A model generated the notes under the pieces. That model saw only the letters and a list, made by a program, of their open reading frames with translations. It did not search any database and had not been told where the DNA came from. Shown one piece after another: positions 1,740 to 53,091 of a stretch of 64,000 bases of DNA (positions are counted from its first letter, which is position 1; every line of letters starts with the position of its first letter). Origin of the DNA: Minisyncoccota bacterium (GTDB taxonomy: Bacteria; Patescibacteriota; Minisyncoccia; Phycocordibacterales; UBA9973); assembly GCA_041658325.1 (NCBI GenBank), contig JBBAAI010000001.1:279266-343265 (forward strand), in the 5' to 3' direction. The position numbers and the translations under genes are program-made.

Positions 1740-4700
1740 ATGCAAGTAGATACAAAGCGTCCAAAGAAGTATTTTTCTAGATACAAAAAACCTTTAGTAG
1801 AATTTCCTAATTTGATTGAAGCTCAAGTAAAGAGTTTCAAATGGTTGGTAGAGACCGGGATCGGGGAAGTCTTTAAAGAATTTTCTCCGATTATTGATTA
1901 TTCTGGAAAAAAATTCCAATTAGAATTTACTTCTTTTTCTCTAGGTGAATCTAAAATTGACGAAAACAATTCAAAAATAAATAAACTTTCCTACCAAGGA
2001 TCTTTGAAGGCGCGGGTAAAATTAACTAACAAAATTTTAGGTACCGTTAAAGAACAAGAAATTTTTATGTCAGAGCTTCCTCTGATGACTCCGCATGGAA
2101 CATTTATTATTAATGGAGTAGAACGTGTCATCGTACCCCAACTTGCGCGATCTTTTGGAGTTTTCTTTACAGAGTCAGAAAGCAAGGGTACTAGATATTT
2201 TGGTGCAAAAATTATTCCAGCTCGTGGTGTCTGGATTGAAATAGAATCTGAATCTGATGGGGGAATTTATATCAGAATAGACAAAAAAAGAAAATTTCCC
2301 GCAACAGCATTGTTGCGTGCTATGGGTTATGAGACGAATGAGATGATTCTAAAGGCATTCTCACAAAATCCGACCGCAGAAGAAACTATCAAAGCTTCTT
2401 TAGCAAAAGACGGAATAAAAAGCTTAAATGAAGCATATATTGAAATTTATAAACGTCTTCGAGATGGTGATATGGCGACTGCTGACAACGCAAAGGAGTT
2501 TATTAATTCTTTATTTACCGCAGAACGTTATGACCTTTCTCCTGTTGGACGATTTAGATTTAATCAACGTTTTGATAAATCAATGGAAGAAGATGAAATG
2601 GCTCGTAGGATAATTTCTAAAGAAGATTTAGTAACTGTGATTTCTCATATTATCGTTTTGAACAATACTCCGTTAGCCAAAGCAGATGATATAGACCACC
2701 TGGGTCAAAGACGTGTGCGTTTTGTTGGAGAAATCCTTCAGCAAAAAGTGCGTACTGGTATGATGCAAATCAAAAGAAACATTCAAGATAGAATGTCTAT
2801 CATTGATGTTGATACAGCTATGCCTATCCAAATCATCAATCAACGTCCACTACAAGCTCGCATTAAAGAATTTTTTACGACTAACCAGCTTTCTCAATTT
2901 ATGGCACAGGAAAATGTGCTTTGTGAAATAGAACATTTGCGCACTCTTTCAGCGCTTGGGCCAGGAGGTCTTACTCGTGAGCGCGCAGGGCTAGAAGTGC
3001 GTGACGTGCACCCTTCTCATTACGGAAGAGTTTGTCCGATTCACACCCCAGAAGGTCCGAACATTGGGCTTATTTTGCATCTTTCAACTTACGCAAAAAT
3101 AAATGATTTCGGAATTATTGAAACTCCTTATGTAAAAGTAAAAAATGGCAAAATTACCAGTGAAATGGTTTATTTAAATGCGCTTGAAGAAGAAAAATAT
3201 AACATTGCACATGCCGGAACTCCTTACGATGAAAACGGAAAAATAACTGAGGAAAAAGTAGAAGCGAGAATTAAGACAGAACCCGGAACAGTTTCTCGCG
3301 ATCAGATTGATTTTATTGATGTAGCTCCCAATCAAGCCTTTTCTATTGCTACCTCAATGATTCCATTTTTGGAACACAATAATGCAAATCGTGCTTTGAT
3401 GGGAAGTAATATGCAGAAACAAGCTGTGCCTTGTGTGCTTCCAGAAATGCCACTCGTTGCAACTGGTGTTGAAAAATTAGCCTCACGGAATTTAGGTAGA
3501 TTGGTTATTTCACAAGAAGAAGGTGTCGTGTCTTATCTAGACGCAAAAAAAATAATTGTTAAAGGAAAGAAAGAAGTAACTTATAATTTGGTTAATTTTT
3601 TAAGAAACAATAATTTCGCTGTTTTTCACCAACGTCCATTGGTAAATATTGGGGATAAAGTAAAAAAAGGTGATGTCTTAGCAGATACTAGTAGTACGGT
3701 GGATGGACAGATTTCAATAGGACAAAATATTTTTGTTGCGTTTTTGTCTTGGTCTGGTTCTACTTACGAAGATGCGATTATAATTTCTGAACGTCTTGTT
3801 AAAAAAAGTAAATTTACTTCAGTTTATGTTGAAGAATTTACTTGCGTGGTTCGTGATACTAAACTTGGGCCTGAAATCACAACTCGAGATATTCCAAATG
3901 TCGGGGAACTCAAATTAAAAGACTTAGATGAAGATGGTATTGTTCGTATTGGAGCAGAAGTAAGAGAGAATGATATTCTAGTTGGGAAAATTACTCCAAA
4001 AGGAGAGACAGAACTTACTCCAGAAGAAAGGCTTCTCCGCTCAATCTTCGCTGAAAAAGCACGTGATGTAAAAGACACTTCTCTTCGTATGGAGCATGGT
4101 AAACGTGGACGTATTATTAATGTAAAGATTTTTTCACGTGACCTAGGACATACTCTTGAGGCTGGAATTATTAAAAAAATTGTTATTGAAGTTGCACAGA
4201 TCAGAAATATTTCAGTTGGAGACAAACTTTCAGGAAGACATGGAAACAAAGGAGTTATCTCAACAATTCTTCCAGAAGAAGATATGCCTTACACCGCTGA
4301 TGGTACGCCAATAGACATTATTCTTTCACCGCTTGGTGTTCCTTCTCGTATGAACCTAGGACAAATTTTAGAAATTCATTTAGGTATGGCCGCAAATAGC
4401 CTTGGTTATCAAGCTATCGTTCCGCCATTCTTGGGAGCTAGGCATGAAGAAATAAAAGAAGAGCTAGTTAAAGCAGGACTTCCAGAAAATGGTAAGTTAA
4501 AACTTTTTGATGGACGCACTGGAGAACCGTTTCAACAAGATATTGCTGTTGGTTATATGTACATGCTCAAACTTCACCACATGGTGGAAGACAAGATTCA
4601 CATGCGTTCGATTGGACCTTATTCTCTCATTACCCAACAACCTCTTGGTGGAAAAGCTCAAGGTGGAGGACAAAGATTTGGAGAAATGGAAGTGTGGGCT

Positions 4701-48207: not shown

Positions 48208-49782
48208 ATGAAAAAAAACGACATAGAGAAAGTGATACTAATAGTTTTGGACGGTTTTGGTTTAGCTCCTAGGGGTCCAGGAAATCCTGTAACGGCAAAA
48301 AACATGCCCTTTTTTGATAGTTTAATTTCGACCTATAAATCTTATAGCTTGGTTGCGGCAGGACTCGTGGTAGGGCTTGAGTGGGGGACTTATGGCAATA
48401 GTGAAGTCGGACACGGGGCCCTTGGTACAGGAAGGGTGGTGGTGCAGAGCTTAGCTAGAATTAACTCTGAAATAAAAGATAGAAAATTTTTCAAAAATGA
48501 AGCTTTTTTAAAAATATTAGAGCATGCAAAAACGAATCATTCTAAAATTCACCTTATTGGTTGTGTGAGTCCTGGTGGGCTACATTCGCACGAAGGTCAT
48601 CTTGTCGGACTTTTGAATTTTTTTGCGGAAAATGATTTTTCTTCAGTCTATGTTCACATGATAACCGACGGAGAAGATAGTGTTCCTGAAGAAGGAATAA
48701 AAAGTCTGGAGAGAATAAACGAAGCACTTGTAAAAGCAAAAGCAAAAATTGTTTCTATCGGTGGTCGCGATTATACAATGGATCGTGTAAAAAACTGGCT
48801 TTTAATCAAAAAAGCTTGGGATGTCATGGTGCACGCGAATGGAGAAAAATATAAAATCCCATCAGATTATTTAAAAAAATCCTACAAAGAGGGGATATTT
48901 GATCCTGATATTGTTCCAGCTTCTTTAGTAGACGATAAGGGACAAAGTATTAAAATAGAAGATGGTGATGGAATTATTTTTTTTAATTTTAGGAATGATC
49001 GAATGAAACAAATAGTAGCACCTTTTGTTTTTGAAGATTTCAAAGATTTTGAAAGGGGTCATATTTTAAAAAATTTAATGGTTGCTACAATGACCAACTA
49101 CGATGACAGTTTTAAAGTATTGGTCGCTTATCCTCCCGACATTCCTGTAAATACTCTGGGAGAAGTTATAAGTAAAAATAAAATGAAACAGCTTCGTTTT
49201 GCAGAGGGTGAAAAAGAAGCTCACGTTACAAACTTTTTTAATGGAGGGAAGCTCGATCCTTATTCCGGAGAAGAAAGAATAATCGCTCGTTCTCGAGCCC
49301 TCTTAGGAAAAGGATATTTAGAACACCCAGAGATGTCTGCTCAAAAAATAACAGAAAATATTTTAAGTAATATTGATAAGCTGTATAGTTTAATGGTTGT
49401 GAATTTTGCTAATAGTGATATGGTGGCGCATTCGGGAGATATTCCTGCTGTAGAAAAAGCTTTAAGTGTTGTGGATAAATCATTAGAAAAAATAATAAAA
49501 GCAGCTGATTTGTCTAAAATGGCGATTATTATAACAGCTGATCATGGCAACGTAGAAGAGATGGTGGACCCAGCTACCAATACTCCAGATACTCAACATT
49601 CAACAGTGAATGTTCCCATTATATTTATAAATGAAAAATTCAAAGATCCAAGTGATAAAAATTTGGATAATTTGTATCAACAAAACCCAGTAGGATCGCT
49701 TATTGACGTAGCCCCAACAATTTTAGGTATTTTGGGCATTGATAAACCTAAAGAAATGTCTGGGACTAAGATTATAGATTGA
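48208..49782 (+). CDS. gpmI: 2,3-bisphosphoglycerate-independent phosphoglycerate mutase
   Basis: The iPGM N-terminus LIVLDGFGLAP is present. The catalytic Ser region and metal-binding residues are ADHGN and MVAHSGD. Confidence 0.9.
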   Translation: MKKNDIEKVILIVLDGFGLAPRGPGNPVTAKNMPFFDSLISTYKSYSLVAAGLVVGLEWGTYGNSEVGHGALGTGRVVVQSLARINSEIKDRKFFKNEAFLKILEHAKTNHSKIHLIGCVSPGGLHSHEGHLVGLLNFFAENDFSSVYVHMITDGEDSVPEEGIKSLERINEALVKAKAKIVSIGGRDYTMDRVKNWLLIKKAWDVMVHANGEKYKIPSDYLKKSYKEGIFDPDIVPASLVDDKGQSIKIEDGDGIIFFNFRNDRMKQIVAPFVFEDFKDFERGHILKNLMVATMTNYDDSFKVLVAYPPDIPVNTLGEVISKNKMKQLRFAEGEKEAHVTNFFNGGKLDPYSGEERIIARSRALLGKGYLEHPEMSAQKITENILSNIDKLYSLMVVNFANSDMVAHSGDIPAVEKALSVVDKSLEKIIKAADLSKMAIIITADHGNVEEMVDPATNTPDTQHSTVNVPIIFINEKFKDPSDKNLDNLYQQNPVGSLIDVAPTILGILGIDKPKEMSGTKIID

Positions 49783-49881: not shown

Positions 49882-51750
49882 ATGAGGAAAATATTTAAAA
49901 GTAAAATTTTAATATTAATAATCTTATTGGGGCTATCAGCTCAAATAGCTTTTGCTTATAGTATTACACCGTTTGGTATTACTGATGCTATTCCCGGGGG
50001 GATAACAATAGACGGAGCCGGGAATATATATACGGCAAACTACAATGGTGCAAATAACGTCTCTAAAATCACTCCAGCCGGTGTTTCAACTATTCTTGGC
50101 ACTACTGGTGCCGAGCCGACCGGCATAATAACAGACGGAGCCGGGAATATATATACGGCAAACTATAGCGCAAATAACGTCTCTAAAATCACTCCAGCCG
50201 GTGTTTCAACTATTCTTGGCACGACTGGTACCAATCCGTATAGTATAACAATAGACGGAGATGGGAATATATATACGGCAAACATTGGTTCAGATAATGT
50301 CACTAAGATCACCCCAGCCGGTGTTTCAACTATTCTTGGCACTACTGGTGCCGGTCCGTATGGTATAACAATAGACGGAGCTGGGAATATATATACTTCA
50401 AACTATAGCGCAAATAACGTCTCTAAAATCACTCCAGCCGGTGTTTCAACTATTCTTGGCACGACTGGTAATGGTCCATGGGGTATAACAATAGACGGAG
50501 CTGGAAATATATATACTTCAAACTATGAAGCAAACAACGTCTCTAAAATCACTCCAGCCGGTGTTTCAACTATTCTTGGCACTACTGGTGCCAATCCGCA
50601 AGATATAACAATAGACGGAGCTGGGAATATATATACTTCAAACTATAGCGCAAATAACGTCTCTAAAATCACTCCAGCCGGTGTTTCAACTATTCTTGGC
50701 ACTACTGGTACCGAGCCGCAAGAGATAACAATAGACGGAGCTGGGAATATATATACGGCAAACAGTGGCTCAAATAATGTTTCTAAAATCACTAATCCGA
50801 CAATCACCGAAGTAACTCCGGTTACAACGCCAATAGTTACTGATAGTCTATTAGACTATACTTTTAATAGCAATAGCGATGGATCAATTTCTGTAGGGGG
50901 CTCTTGTGGTTCAATCACAACAAGCGCAATCGCAGGAGATAATGCTATTACTTTTGATGCGCTTCCTGCTGGCACATATTCTAATTGTACAATAATAGTT
51001 ACCGATAGTTTTGGTCCAAGTAATACGCTTGCAGTTTCTTCTTTTGTTGTTTCTACTACCCCCACCGTCACATCTTCTCCTGCCACAAACATAACTAGAG
51101 TCGGAGCCACCTTAAATGGAGAAATCACTGCTACCGGAGGAGCCGATGCTACCGCCAGAGGTTTCCAATATGGTATGACCAACAGTTATGGCACGACAGT
51201 TACTGAATCAAGTGGTCCCTACAGTACAGGAGTCTTCACCGCTGACCTCTCTAACTTACTCACCTGTGGTCAACCCTACTATTTCCGTGCTTACGCTACC
51301 AACATTGCAGGTACGAGCTATGGAGCAGAAACTACTTTTACCACCACTACTTGTGATACCGGAGGGGGAGGAGGCGGAACAGTAACTCCACCTCCAGTAA
51401 TTCCTCCCGTAACCCCACCCGTTGTTCCTCCTGTCACTCCACCGGTTGTACCACCACCCACAACCATAAACACCATCTGTAATCTTGGAGATAATTTCAG
51501 TGCTACAACTGGTTTGCCTTGTACTTCTTATTATCAAACAAATCCAACATCAAGTTGTCCCATTACTGTTACTTTAAGGTTTGGTTATAGGGGGAATCAA
51601 GTTAAATGTTTACAAATAGGTTTAAATATTTCTGCTGATGGTATTTTTGGATTACAAACCAAAGCGGCTGTTATTAAATTTCAAAAAAGCAAGGGTTTGG
51701 TGCCAGACGGAATATTTGGTCCTAAATCACGAGCTTTGTGGCTAAAATAA
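49882..51750 (+). CDS. Secreted repeat protein: ~9 tandem 40-aa beta-propeller (NHL/SBBP-like) repeats, Pro-rich linker, C-terminal PG_binding_1 domain
   Basis: A signal peptide is predicted. The repeat ITIDGAGNIYT(A/S)NY.ANNVSKITPAGVSTILGTTG occurs ~9 times. The Pro-rich linker is PPVIPPVTPPVVPPVTPPVVPPP. The C-terminal PGB1 domain is ADGIFGLQTKAAVIKFQKSKGLVPDGIFGPKS. Confidence 0.65.
   Translation: MRKIFKSKILILIILLGLSAQIAFAYSITPFGITDAIPGGITIDGAGNIYTANYNGANNVSKITPAGVSTILGTTGAEPTGIITDGAGNIYTANYSANNVSKITPAGVSTILGTTGTNPYSITIDGDGNIYTANIGSDNVTKITPAGVSTILGTTGAGPYGITIDGAGNIYTSNYSANNVSKITPAGVSTILGTTGNGPWGITIDGAGNIYTSNYEANNVSKITPAGVSTILGTTGANPQDITIDGAGNIYTSNYSANNVSKITPAGVSTILGTTGTEPQEITIDGAGNIYTANSGSNNVSKITNPTITEVTPVTTPIVTDSLLDYTFNSNSDGSISVGGSCGSITTSAIAGDNAITFDALPAGTYSNCTIIVTDSFGPSNTLAVSSFVVSTTPTVTSSPATNITRVGATLNGEITATGGADATARGFQYGMTNSYGTTVTESSGPYSTGVFTADLSNLLTCGQPYYFRAYATNIAGTSYGAETTFTTTTCDTGGGGGGTVTPPPVIPPVTPPVVPPVTPPVVPPPTTINTICNLGDNFSATTGLPCTSYYQTNPTSSCPITVTLRFGYRGNQVKCLQIGLNISADGIFGLQTKAAVIKFQKSKGLVPDGIFGPKSRALWLK
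49990..50790 (+). repeat. Near-identical ~120-123-bp tandem DNA repeats (about 7 units) inside the 49882 gene
   Basis: The block ctctaaaatcactccagccggtgtttcaactattcttggcac recurs at ~120-bp period with only a few substitutions per unit. The repeats are in-frame coding. Confidence 0.7.
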
Positions 51751-51798
51751 AAGAGTTTACCCGTTGGGTATTTTTTGACAATCAGTTTTTTAAAAATG

Positions 51799-51807
51799 TG
51801 ATACAAT
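51799..51807 (+). promoter_or_regulatory. Extended -10 promoter element (TGaTACAAT) upstream of hpf
   Basis: This is a TGnTAnAAT-type extended -10. It would place the transcription start at about 51814-51816, the first base of the inverted repeat. Confidence 0.35.
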
Positions 51808-51814
51808 AAATATA

Positions 51815-51886
51815 TGCATCCCGTTAGAAATCTACGGGATTTGCAGAAAAGTAGATTATTAACTAATTAATTTCTAACGGGATGCA
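51815..51886 (+). promoter_or_regulatory. Perfect 17-bp inverted repeat in the hpf 5' leader that encloses the start codon
   Basis: The left arm tgcatcccgttagaaat (51815-51831) is the exact reverse complement of the right arm atttctaacgggatgca (51870-51886). The right arm contains the hpf ATG (51882-51884) and its RBS. A nested atctac...gtagat repeat lies in the loop. Confidence 0.5.
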
Positions 51887-52280
51887 AATAAATTTACAAG
51901 GGAAAAATATGGAGTTGACAGAGGCTATTAAGGATTATGCCTTGAAAAGAGTTACTAATTTGGGTAAACTGCTTTCTTCGATTGAAAAAGGAGGAGGTGA
52001 AGTTATGATTAATCTTGAAGTTGGTCAAAGTACGAAGCATCACAAATCAGGCGTTATTTTTCATTCTGATTGCTTAGTTAATATTAATGGGGAAAAGTTT
52101 TATTCAGAAAGCGACAATGAAGATTTATACGCCGCTATTGATGCGGTAAAAGATAGTCTTTTCAACGAAATAGAAAAAAACAAAAATCGTAAACAAACAC
52201 TTTTCAGACGTGGAGCATCAAGTATTAAAAAGATGTTAAAGGGACTTTCAGACCGTAACCCGTTTACTTCAAAATATTAG
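51882..52280 (+). CDS. hpf: Ribosome hibernation-promoting factor / RaiA family
   Basis: The N-terminus MQINLQGKNMELTEAIKDYALKRV aligns to the HPF consensus MNIQITGKNIEVTEAIRDYV. Confidence 0.8.
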   Translation: MQINLQGKNMELTEAIKDYALKRVTNLGKLLSSIEKGGGEVMINLEVGQSTKHHKSGVIFHSDCLVNINGEKFYSESDNEDLYAAIDAVKDSLFNEIEKNKNRKQTLFRRGASSIKKMLKGLSDRNPFTSKY

Positions 52281-53091
52281 TTTTTAATAAATCTTCGTAT
52301 TTTATTTCCTTTTTACCTTCTGGTAACACTTTTTTGATTGCAAACTCTCCATCTTCCAATATTGCGTCAGTAATAATAATTCTTTTTCCATCTTTAAAAA
52401 AGAAAGTTCTGGGCCAGTATGCATAGGCGCGAAATTTGTTGTAATTTTTTATAGCGCTGTCGTTTAAATCAATAAGTCCATCCTCTTTTTTGATTTTTTT
52501 ACAAAAAGTTGCTTCGGATTCATCCTGAGCAATTTCTTTAATTTTTCCATTAATAAAATCTGGTAAAGTTTTTGTTAGAAGTTCTCCACCAGTCTTTATT
52601 AAACGAGTCTTTAGCTCTGGTGTTTTTTCATCAGGTAATATTGTTGTTTTTTCTTTAGCAATAACGGGCCCAGAGTCCATTTTGTATGCCATTTTTTGAA
52701 TTGTCACTCCTGTCTCTGTTTCGCCATTTAGAATTACAGATTCTACTGGTGAGGCTCCTCGATATTTTGGAAGTAGAGAATAGTGAACATTAATAGAGCC
52801 TAATTTTGGTATATTTAAGAGATTCTCTGGTATTATTTTCCCGTAGGCAACAACGATAGATAAATCTGCTTGAAAATCTATGTCTAATTTTTCTGGCTGA
52901 ACGTAAGGAATATTGTTTTTTATTGCCCAAATTTTTACTGGCGGGGGAGTAATAAGCATTTTACGTCCTTGTGGTTTGTCAGGCGCAGTCACAATAAGTG
53001 ATGGTAGAAAGCCATTTTTTTTTAAAATCTCCAAAGTTTCATATGCTACATCTGGAGTACCCCAAAATATAAAGTTCAATTTTTCCTTCAT
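52264..53091 (-). CDS. fmt: Methionyl-tRNA formyltransferase
   Basis: The N-terminus is IFWGTPDVAYETLEIL. The formyltransferase core is IINVHYSLLPKYRGASPV. It follows def in the conserved order. Confidence 0.85.
   Translation of the reverse strand: MKEKLNFIFWGTPDVAYETLEILKKNGFLPSLIVTAPDKPQGRKMLITPPPVKIWAIKNNIPYVQPEKLDIDFQADLSIVVAYGKIIPENLLNIPKLGSINVHYSLLPKYRGASPVESVILNGETETGVTIQKMAYKMDSGPVIAKEKTTILPDEKTPELKTRLIKTGGELLTKTLPDFINGKIKEIAQDESEATFCKKIKKEDGLIDLNDSAIKNYNKFRAYAYWPRTFFFKDGKRIIITDAILEDGEFAIKKVLPEGKKEIKYEDLLKTNILK

Follow-up and report, generated by a model that had tools for sequence, protein, structure and literature searches.

What is a perfect 17-bp helix doing on the start codon of a ribosome hibernation gene? 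The question arises in a stretch of 64,000 nucleotides (hereafter the window; GenBank assembly GCA_041658325.1, contig JBBAAI010000001.1, positions 279,266 to 343,265 of the forward strand) from a Minisyncoccota bacterium, where the start codon of hpf lies inside a long inverted repeat. An earlier note on this DNA had taken the repeat for a regulatory leader that couples hpf translation to growth state. Our comparison with related loci leads elsewhere: with a probability of roughly 80%, the hairpin is an inserted mobile element, belonging to a family that resembles MITEs (miniature transposable elements with inverted repeats), which landed in the hpf start codon.

The repeat itself is as the earlier note described it. 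The sequence TGCATCCCGTTAGAAAT at 51815-51831 is the exact reverse complement (17/17 bp) of ATTTCTAACGGGATGCA at 51870-51886, 38 nt separate the two arms, and the right arm holds the hpf ATG at 51882-51884; the loop contains the nested 6-bp repeat that had also been pointed out (ATCTAC at 51830-35, GTAGAT at 51850-55). Extended to 21 nt, the repeat retains 95% complementarity, with one mismatch. Inverted repeats of 13 nt or more whose loop exceeds 30 nt number only three in the window, this one included, and a search of the 64 kb for matches to its arms with up to 3 mismatches returned only the two arms in the hpf leader (0.19 expected). RNA folding of 51815-51900, which had been suggested as a check, gave a minimum free energy of -29.4 kcal/mol compared with -9.9 +/- 2.9 for shuffled sequences (z = -6.67), and 0/200 shuffles folded as well as the native sequence. 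The claim that the helix occludes translation initiation is correct for the hpf AUG, which is buried in it and has a probability of being unpaired of 0.0004 in the ensemble of 51814-51940. It does not extend to a ribosome-binding site, as no recognisable Shine-Dalgarno site is present there.

Filled and empty sites at the hpf start codon

The open reading frame (ORF) at 51882-52280 encodes HPF/RaiA (PF02482, E = 4e-14, with profile position 1 at residue 3). Over 100 homologues, from Candidatus Nomurabacteria and further Patescibacteria, keep its N-terminus, M-[QK]-I-N-L-Q-G-K-N, and 51882 is therefore the true hpf start. Met10 (51909, preceded by AAGGGA) was considered as the normal start and rejected, since residue 10 is M, F, I or L in relatives while residues 1-9 are conserved; a start at Met10 could nevertheless give a truncated product in this strain.

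The locus was compared with 80 species-level loci encoding this HPF (L001-L080) and with the four closest HPF homologues (96-99% protein and 87-90% nucleotide identity), which lie on ten contigs (L258-L267). The regulatory reading stood or fell with the presence of the repeat in close relatives, and all ten contigs of the four closest homologues (10/10) lack the hairpin: they show only a leaderless promoter-ATG junction, tgtgatacaataaatatATGCAAATAAA, without a compensating structure. A search for covariation in homologous hpf leaders, also suggested in the earlier note, found the hairpin absent from 73/80 species-level relatives, in which hpf has no leader of any kind. The empty site in L264, whose HPF is 99% identical, reads tgtgatacaataaatatATGCAAATAAAC, whereas the filled site of the window reads tgtgatacaataaatatATGCA[TCCCGTTAGAAAT...ATTTCTAACGGGA]TGCAAATAAAT, with arms TCCCG...CGGGA; in short form it is ...aaatatATGCA[64 bp]TGCAAATAAA, with a 4-bp target duplication TGCA. 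The comparison was read directly from the sequences, MAFFT having placed the gap arbitrarily owing to the duplication. The inserted element has the full sequence MECHANISTICALLY, and the junction is composed of the following features:

51799..51807, + strand: extended -10 element TGaTACAAT, hexamer TACAAT at 51802-51807; identical tgtgatacaat in the closest relative, L264
51814..51816, + strand: ancestral hpf start codon (the old ATG), which follows the -10 hexamer by 6 nt; L264 has ...caataaatatATGCAAATAAA at its empty site
51815..51818, + strand: left target-site duplication TGCA, from the empty/filled comparison
51819..51831, + strand: left 13-bp terminal inverted repeat TCCCGTTAGAAAT; the stem of the family is exactly 13 bp
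51819..51882, no strand assigned: 64-bp MITE-like element of the T...A end type, missing from relatives L258-L267
51870..51882, + strand: right 13-bp terminal inverted repeat ATTTCTAACGGGA, whose final A is the A of the rebuilt hpf ATG
51883..51886, + strand: right target-site duplication TGCA, which gives the TG of the new start codon
51882..52280, + strand: intact hpf/raiA coding sequence for 132 aa, with 99% identity between it and the nearest homologue

The new hpf ATG thus consists of the terminal A of the element and the duplicated TG, and the reading frame is unchanged. The duplicated TGCA is a palindrome and so lengthens the 13-bp stem to a perfect 17 bp; the perfection and length of the helix are a product of transposon ends and a palindromic duplication, not of selection on hpf. 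A striking hairpin with every appearance of a regulator is accounted for by transposon ends, which is a caution against over-reading perfect helices in 5' leaders. Other filled and empty pairs occur among the loci compared, such as L008 against L268 and L011. L008 also carries a copy between the hisS stop codon and the def ATG (3880-3990, with ATGAA on both sides), where the hisS-def junction of the window is empty.

The ancestral arrangement of the promoter can be read from the same relatives, and they back the promoter and transcript start that the earlier note had guessed. A TAnnnT hexamer ends 4-9 nt before the ATG in 63/73 element-free loci; in 51 of these 63 it stands at exactly 6 nt and in 47 it carries an extended TGn, compared with 13.7% for random ATGs. 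By this promoter geometry, hpf would be leaderless in the clade of the relatives, the predicted transcription start in the window would be A 51814, of a formerly leaderless mRNA, and the left arm should therefore lie at the very 5' end of the transcript. The nearest -35-like sequence, TTGACA at 51775-80, is 21 nt away, beyond canonical spacing. Within the window, a TAnnnT hexamer, in many cases with TGn ahead of it, ends 5-8 nt from the ATG in 12-13 of 54 ORFs, and few ORFs have a Shine-Dalgarno motif (4/54, some of them doubtful), a geometry that implies that leaderless genes may be widespread. Examples of such an arrangement include the ORFs starting at 842, 32044, 41006, 54959(-), 59365, 60402(-) and 61494, among others.

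The element family and the signals it rebuilds

A scan of metagenome contigs with a two-arm pattern recovered the family on at least 120 contigs, and family statistics were computed on 142 non-redundant copies among the matches listed. Its members measure 60-120 bp, have arms of the form Y-CCCGTTAGA-NNN ... NNN-TCTAACGGG-R and are flanked by TNNA duplications. An exact 4-bp direct repeat surrounds 78/142 copies, compared with 0-1/142 in shifted registers, and per-position flank identity is 0.68-0.82 within the 4 bp and at background (~0.2-0.4) outside them. The commonest duplications are TGAA/TTCA (26), TAAA/TTTA (26) and TCAA/TTGA (11); the window copy is the only one of the 78 with TGCA. The stem measures exactly 13 bp: 97.8% of cells are paired in 138 copies, and pairing is no higher than background at position 14 and further inwards or at positions 2-3 of the flanks. 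Stem positions 2-10 were fixed by the search pattern, and all four pairs that were free to vary (1, 11, 12 and 13) show double-sided changes, that is, covariation. G.U and A.C mismatches in gene-oriented stems (10 vs 7) do not discriminate between constraint at the RNA level and at the DNA level. Interiors are unrelated between copies, and in a blastn search of the window interior against all fetched loci only the arms matched.

These copies precede genes unrelated to hpf, including infB (L075 3141-3220, with ATGGA on both sides). Exact protein look-ups placed the hosts in Azambacteria, Giovannonibacteria and candidate division Kazan, all Patescibacteria, and in one metagenome-assembled genome (MAG) labelled Sedimentisphaerales (Planctomycetota); the GC content of element-bearing contigs ranges from 30 to 64%. 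The small and densely packed genomes of Patescibacteria are considered poor in mobile elements, yet this family reaches one copy per 1-2 kb in some members of the group (contigs L150, L129, L140 and L164) and is present in at least one other phylum. Arm matches number 9 in 4.7 kb of L150 and 12 in 14 kb of L164. In L140 (7180-9768), consecutive genes of one cluster, murG among them, each have a copy at their start, and L103 (616-799) contains two tandem copies 6 nt apart. A long ORF of at least 80 codons, by a crude test, spans ~28/140 copies (for example in L089, L098, L120 and L163); these may be in-frame insertions within genes, like the palindromic elements (RPEs) of Rickettsia, or the ORFs may be spurious. 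A full-text literature search found no description of the family or of its arm sequence. In Rfam, nothing came at or near threshold for 51400-52400 (E up to 10), and ten element-rich loci gave only tRNAs at gathering score. The family is widespread, MITE-like and unusual in its relation to start codons, and represents a new family or a new variant.

The ends of the element are of two types: C...G in 87 copies and T...A in 45. Among T...A copies, 35/45 abut an ATG that opens a long ORF, with recognisable housekeeping products including def, hpf, infB, two rplI, panC, nusB, ftsH, gmk, thyX and glpX, while 17/87 C...G copies border on a GTG at the head of a long ORF (murG, hisI and others), the old ATG often persisting upstream. 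Given this association between end type and rebuilt codon (Fisher p = 1e-10, an approximate value), the terminal base of the element decides whether an ATG or a GTG is restored. In gene-dense, AT-rich genomes ATGAA(A) offers a common TGAA site, where insertion with regeneration of the codon is tolerated; survivorship alone could be sufficient for the start-codon bias, with no need for active targeting. The family in this way shows a route by which a start codon can be invaded without killing the gene, the codon being rebuilt and the old one left to drive an upstream ORF (uORF).

A similar repair is seen at promoters. Apparent -35 boxes (G|TTGA|CA, 16-17 nt, TAnnnT) are occupied by C...G copies that have a TTGA duplication in L082, L084, L151, L160 (two copies), L185 and L196, with the -35 hexamer rebuilt much like the ATG. 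In hosts that use Shine-Dalgarno sites (L167, L110, L251, L246, L247, L174 and L194), right-arm positions 11-13 together with the loop spell GGAGG or AGGAG 9-12 nt before the rebuilt ATG, and the left arm has the complementary CCTC; there the element both supplies and masks the ribosome-binding site.

At hpf itself the family has arrived more than once. The hpf start is occupied by an element in 8/81 Nomurabacteria loci (the window, L008, L013, L025, L052, L063, L075 and L079), which are scattered over the HPF tree, each beside element-free relatives, and which represent at least four sub-types. The surrounding DNA holds only 2 copies in ~320 kb, so that the hpf start is enriched (p ~2e-4, approximate). 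One sub-type of 72 nt is 89-99% identical among L008, L269, L013 and L052, loci whose adjacent coding sequence is 69-83% identical (47-64% at third positions) and whose upstream DNA is ~55% identical; among its few differences, one stem pair is exchanged as C-G / T-A / G-C. This points to recent spread of the sub-type, to strong constraint on the hairpin, or to both. Its copies lack the duplicated ATG and have ACYTG instead. Five short-read contigs with an L013-type hpf (L273-L277) end 38 nt before the ATG, inside the element; the hairpin apparently breaks assemblies, and copy numbers in MAGs may accordingly be underestimated.

Proposed translation of hpf across the insertion

Two further features of the locus bear on how hpf could be expressed from the filled site:

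51814..51870, + strand: uORF formed by the old ATG and 17 further codons (MHPVRNLRDLQKSRLLTN), with the stop codon TAA at 51868-70; created by the insertion
51815..51845, + strand: alternative 5' hairpin UGCAUCCCGU...ACGGGAU..UGCA, -13.2 kcal/mol, which competes with the 17-bp helix for the left arm

At equilibrium, the U-G of the old AUG and the entire new AUG are paired within one helix. Opening the right arm costs 14.6 kcal/mol, a figure that reflects the ability of the left arm to refold into the alternative 5' hairpin, a fold that the nascent transcript also adopts for as long as the right arm has yet to be synthesised. This hairpin uses a degenerate internal copy of the right end, TCTA-CGGGA (51831-39), and a third TGCA (51842-45), and the 5' part of the element resembles a miniature copy with TGCA flanks of its own. 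The window uORF, of 18 codons, extends over the left arm and all of the loop, and 11 nt separate its end from the hpf AUG.

In the family as a whole, 36/52 gene-start copies still have the old start codon, and its frame runs stop-free through the interior in 18/36 of them, compared with 5 and 2 for the other frames and 4.9 expected from shuffles (binomial p = 2e-7, again approximate). Of the 18 open uORFs, seven terminate within the right arm at a TAA that precedes the new ATG by 4 nt (TC-TAA-CGGG-ATG), seven terminate at a TGA overlapping this ATG (A-TGA-A), and four continue in frame into the gene. Among the reading frames of the left arm, only that of the old start has no stop codon. Interiors are oriented with respect to the gene at 15:1, an internal CGGG competitor for the left arm lying in the 5' half in 15 copies and at the mirror position in one.

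These regularities are consistent with a translation-coupled opening of hpf through the uORF, a tentative account to which we give slightly less than even odds. Transcription would still begin at the old ATG (51814), giving an mRNA with the left arm at its head. After synthesis of the right arm, the 17-bp helix would lock both the old and the new AUG, and ribosomes could load on the 5'-terminal old AUG only co-transcriptionally, before the helix closes. Those that did so would read the 18-codon uORF through the element, unzip the stem and terminate at UAA 51868-70 with the right arm in their mRNA channel, from where they could re-initiate 11 nt further on at the hpf AUG; the vacated left arm may meanwhile be held in the alternative 5' hairpin. 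Where the uORF was not translated, the mRNA would remain locked and, with its 5' end paired, would probably be long-lived, as a base-paired 5' end should stabilise mRNA. An aside in the earlier note, that ribosomes might arrive from an upstream site, comes close to this likeliest route of expression; the dedicated regulator around which it was framed does not survive. The insertion is tolerated and possibly modulating and need not be a purpose-built hpf regulator, the design of the element being one that keeps the gene expressible.

Several observations weigh against the insertion of a mobile element and its coupling to translation as set out here. The window uORF stops 11 nt upstream of the AUG, at neither of the two coupling positions typical of the family; re-initiation without a Shine-Dalgarno site is assumed, and the transcription start is placed by promoter geometry. 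At least nine gene-start copies have ACTTG or ACCTG as left flank in place of (A)TGAA, with no old ATG, so a uORF is impossible there and coupling cannot be universal; these include the hpf copies of L008, L013, L052 and L269 and others in L081, L251, L141, L150, L180 and L186, across sub-types and hosts. A stem that covaries at positions 1 and 11-13, combined with interiors that are not shared, is unusual for classical inverted repeats bound by a transposase. The 64-kb window holds only a single copy, and the copies of the family are not all phylogenetically independent, which makes the p-values given above approximate. The 1.66 Mb of DNA fetched around short copies contained no autonomous copy and no transposase bounded by the arms, which is weak evidence: a search for arms paired at a distance of 300-5000 bp, for orphan arms and for ORFs of 230 aa or more lying between inverted 12-mers gave only neighbouring short copies, nearly all arms pairing within 260 bp. 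With the ISEcp1 transposase as query, tblastn gave a single homologue (L163 10111-11328 (-), 26% identity over 432 aa, E = 2e-21), an IS1380-like gene with no CCCGTTAGA arms around it, on a contig that ends 184 nt upstream of the gene.

The alternatives differ mainly in what the helix is held to do. A dedicated cis-regulatory leader of hpf (a thermosensor, a riboswitch-like sequestor or one opened by a factor) that ties HPF to growth state would agree with a very stable helix over the AUG and with the presence of family elements at the hpf start in more loci than at neighbouring genes, but it is the least probable of the explanations weighed here, and hardly to be expected: the site is empty in all the closest relatives, bearing loci are scattered among element-free neighbours, and the same arms, flanked by target duplications, precede unrelated genes in many genomes (def, infB, rplI, ftsH, murG and others), also in other phyla. 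The best thermometer model in Rfam scored 24 bits against a gathering score of 51.5, which is no match. The raiA RNA motif is a large non-coding RNA found upstream of raiA/hpf genes in other phyla; this motif and other Rfam families were rejected as identities for the element, nothing matching at gathering score in 51400-52400. Leader control of HPF-family genes does exist elsewhere: according to PMC4956104, the 5' leader of lrtA in Synechocystis mediates post-transcriptional control, but that leader is resident and gene-specific, whereas the hpf element is a recent insertion of a promiscuous mobile element. An insertion that simply silences hpf or strongly cuts its translation, leaving a recent, hypomorphic, neutral or mildly deleterious allele, is a more serious candidate, though we consider it unlikely. 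An AUG that is essentially never unpaired at equilibrium, the absence of a Shine-Dalgarno site and the position of the uORF stop away from the typical coupling positions would all fit it, as would the perfect arms, which suit a young insertion, and the exact look-up in which no other contig in the collection carried the HPF protein of the window. Yet the family keeps the old-start frame open far above chance, its elements sit on the essential genes infB, def, ftsH, murG and rplI and so cannot generally silence, and the hpf ORF is intact and 99% identical to that of an empty-site relative despite ~10% nucleotide divergence.

Other accounts move the action to RNA processing, to transcription or to a different kind of mobility. 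Hairpins of Correia (NEMIS) elements in Neisseria mRNAs are reported to be substrates of RNase III, and 5'-terminal stem-loops are reported to stabilise bacterial mRNAs; by analogy, the duplex of 17-21 bp might be cut by RNase III to leave a near-leaderless mRNA, or might protect the 5' end from decay. The helix begins 1 nt from the predicted 5' end, and RNase III is retained in Patescibacteria, according to PMC12641178. The family stem of 13 bp is short for RNase III, however, and processing leaves the open uORF frames and the orientation bias unexplained, which makes this account improbable. Still less probable is a start of hpf transcription inside the element, which would leave the left arm outside the mRNA and abolish sequestration. 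Some members do have good -10 boxes, such as TGATATAAT in the loop of the hpf copy of L079 or TATAAT 16-21 nt before the ATG in L153 and L184, but the window copy has no hexamer passing the same threshold and nothing inside it comparable to the ancestral extended -10, which is intact immediately upstream; moreover, -10-like hexamers over the 52 gene-start copies are 34 sense and 38 antisense. About equally remote is the proposal that the hairpin is no transposon at all but a structure-specific recombination site or a hairpin mobilised as single-stranded DNA, like integron attC sites or the REP/REPIN sequences moved by RAYT. It would account for a stem that covaries, with structure kept over sequence at 4/13 positions, for unrelated interiors and for the missing transposase, and in its length of 60-120 bp and the GTT/AAC triplets of its arms the family is reminiscent of attC. 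Against it stand 4-bp repeats that vary from copy to copy but agree at the two ends of any one copy, a mark of staggered cutting followed by repair and not of attC or REP biology, and a setting at the starts of housekeeping genes and not in cassette arrays; on both strands the arms read 5'-GTTAGA...TCTAAC-3', the opposite of attC (5'-RYYYAAC...GTTRRRY-3'). Identity with attC was rejected on these three grounds. REP/REPIN sequences lack a target duplication and are characterised by a conserved head of the GTAG type and linkage to a RAYT gene, and this identity was likewise rejected, the present family having target duplications and the head YCCCGTTAGA.

The preferred reading remains an inserted mobile element that hpf tolerates. 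A broader proposal is that the family is adapted to very compact genomes, surviving at or aiming for the few non-lethal sites (start codons, A|TGAA, and -35 boxes, G|TTGA|CA), as its ends and 4-bp duplication rebuild the split signal, with a sequence built to be translationally transparent, and that some copies have perhaps been co-opted as translation-coupled gates, hpf being a recurrent case (8/81 lineages); we hold this as a conjecture that is somewhat more doubtful than the coupling at hpf. The importance of these results is moderate to high for the element family and modest for hpf regulation itself. The copies provide naturally occurring test cases for leaderless initiation, for re-initiation and for the unwinding of hairpins, in organisms that seemingly use few Shine-Dalgarno sites, and the natural filled and empty alleles of hpf, def, infB and other genes permit direct tests in metatranscriptomes.

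Relations to known elements and the surroundings of hpf

Several described systems share traits with the family. Correia elements have 26-bp repeats, a TA duplication and conserved interiors, are confined to one genus and are not known to insert into start codons. Like the present element, they are MITEs co-transcribed with their neighbours, form hairpins in 5' untranslated regions and affect the fate of the mRNA; they can also carry promoters (PMC3184786). By the criteria of the same review (a short element with terminal inverted repeats and a target duplication, no transposase, a stem-loop RNA, and filled and empty sites), the element in the hpf leader is MITE-like. Bacterial MITEs, of which Nezha is the filled/empty example (PMC3184786), are likewise short (under ~400 bp) and non-coding, with inverted repeats, a duplication, numerous copies, filled and empty sites in related genomes and an RNA that folds as a long stem-loop. 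The present family differs from them in that only its 13-bp arms are common to its copies, with unrelated interiors, a covarying stem and no parent insertion sequence found, and in that its T...A-ended copies sit on start codons and rebuild them. Rickettsia RPEs (PMC3184786) are similarly palindromic, mobile and tolerated in or at the ends of coding sequences as the frame stays open, a situation approached by the 4/36 copies that fuse in frame to the 5' end of a gene; most copies of the present family, in contrast, are not translated into protein but make a uORF that stops at or next to the rebuilt start. Neisseria REP2 sequences (PMC3184786) also stand directly upstream of genes and bring translation signals (a ribosome-binding site and ATG), but they have neither terminal inverted repeats nor a target duplication and are not known to be mobile, whereas the ATG of the present element comes from its own last base and the duplicated target.

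The ends of the element also recall the IS1380 and piggyBac groups, whose members have duplications of 4-5 bp and ends beginning CC. The piggyBac transposon has 13-bp terminal repeats, CCCTAGAAAGATA, and a TTAA duplication. The left end of ISEcp1 is CCTAGATTCTACG..., an end seen as CCTAGATTC... beside an annotated IS1380-family transposase. The present element shares with them a 4-bp AT-rich duplication of the T...A type and ends that begin CC(C) and contain TAGA; the resemblance amounts to only a few bases, and no IS1380-like transposase bounded by the arms was found, so that the relation is a lead and not a classification. A scan of viral contigs, L201-L256 among them, returned 57, many with a different family of 66 bp, CCCGCTAGAAGA. 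That family is palindromic, CCCG[CT]TAGAAGA...TCTTCTA[AG]CGGG, with flanks ...tttttacg / cgttgctt..., on ~25 IMG/VR contigs; its arms resemble those of the hpf element, and its flanks and context differ.

Upstream of the hpf promoter lies one further structural feature:

51758..51776, + strand: terminator-like hairpin TACCCGTTGGGTA followed by a T-run, 8 nt past the stop codon (51748-50) of the upstream gene of 622 aa, from a terminator scan

This hairpin separates the upstream gene from the hpf transcription unit. It reads gTTTAC-CCGTTGGG-TA and resembles an element end of the C...G type, GTTTAC|CCCGTTAGA, a likeness that could be chance or a relic. The hairpin in the hpf leader was itself considered as an intrinsic terminator or attenuator and rejected, as no U-run follows the stem and the terminator scan lists only the upstream hairpin (51758-70).

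The HPF proteins of Nomurabacteria, with 132 aa, comprise the S30AE domain (residues 3-104) and a strongly conserved basic tail, QTLF+RGAxS[VI]KKM[LM]KGLSxRNPFTSKY; Pfam assigns a single domain. Synteny upstream of hpf varies. In the window the gene is preceded by that encoding the 622-aa protein, with NHL/beta-propeller and PG-binding regions (49882-51750), in L267, L001, L002 and L007 it directly follows a phosphoglycerate-mutase-like gene, the homologue of 48208-49782, and in L258-L266 it is preceded by a GH130 gene.

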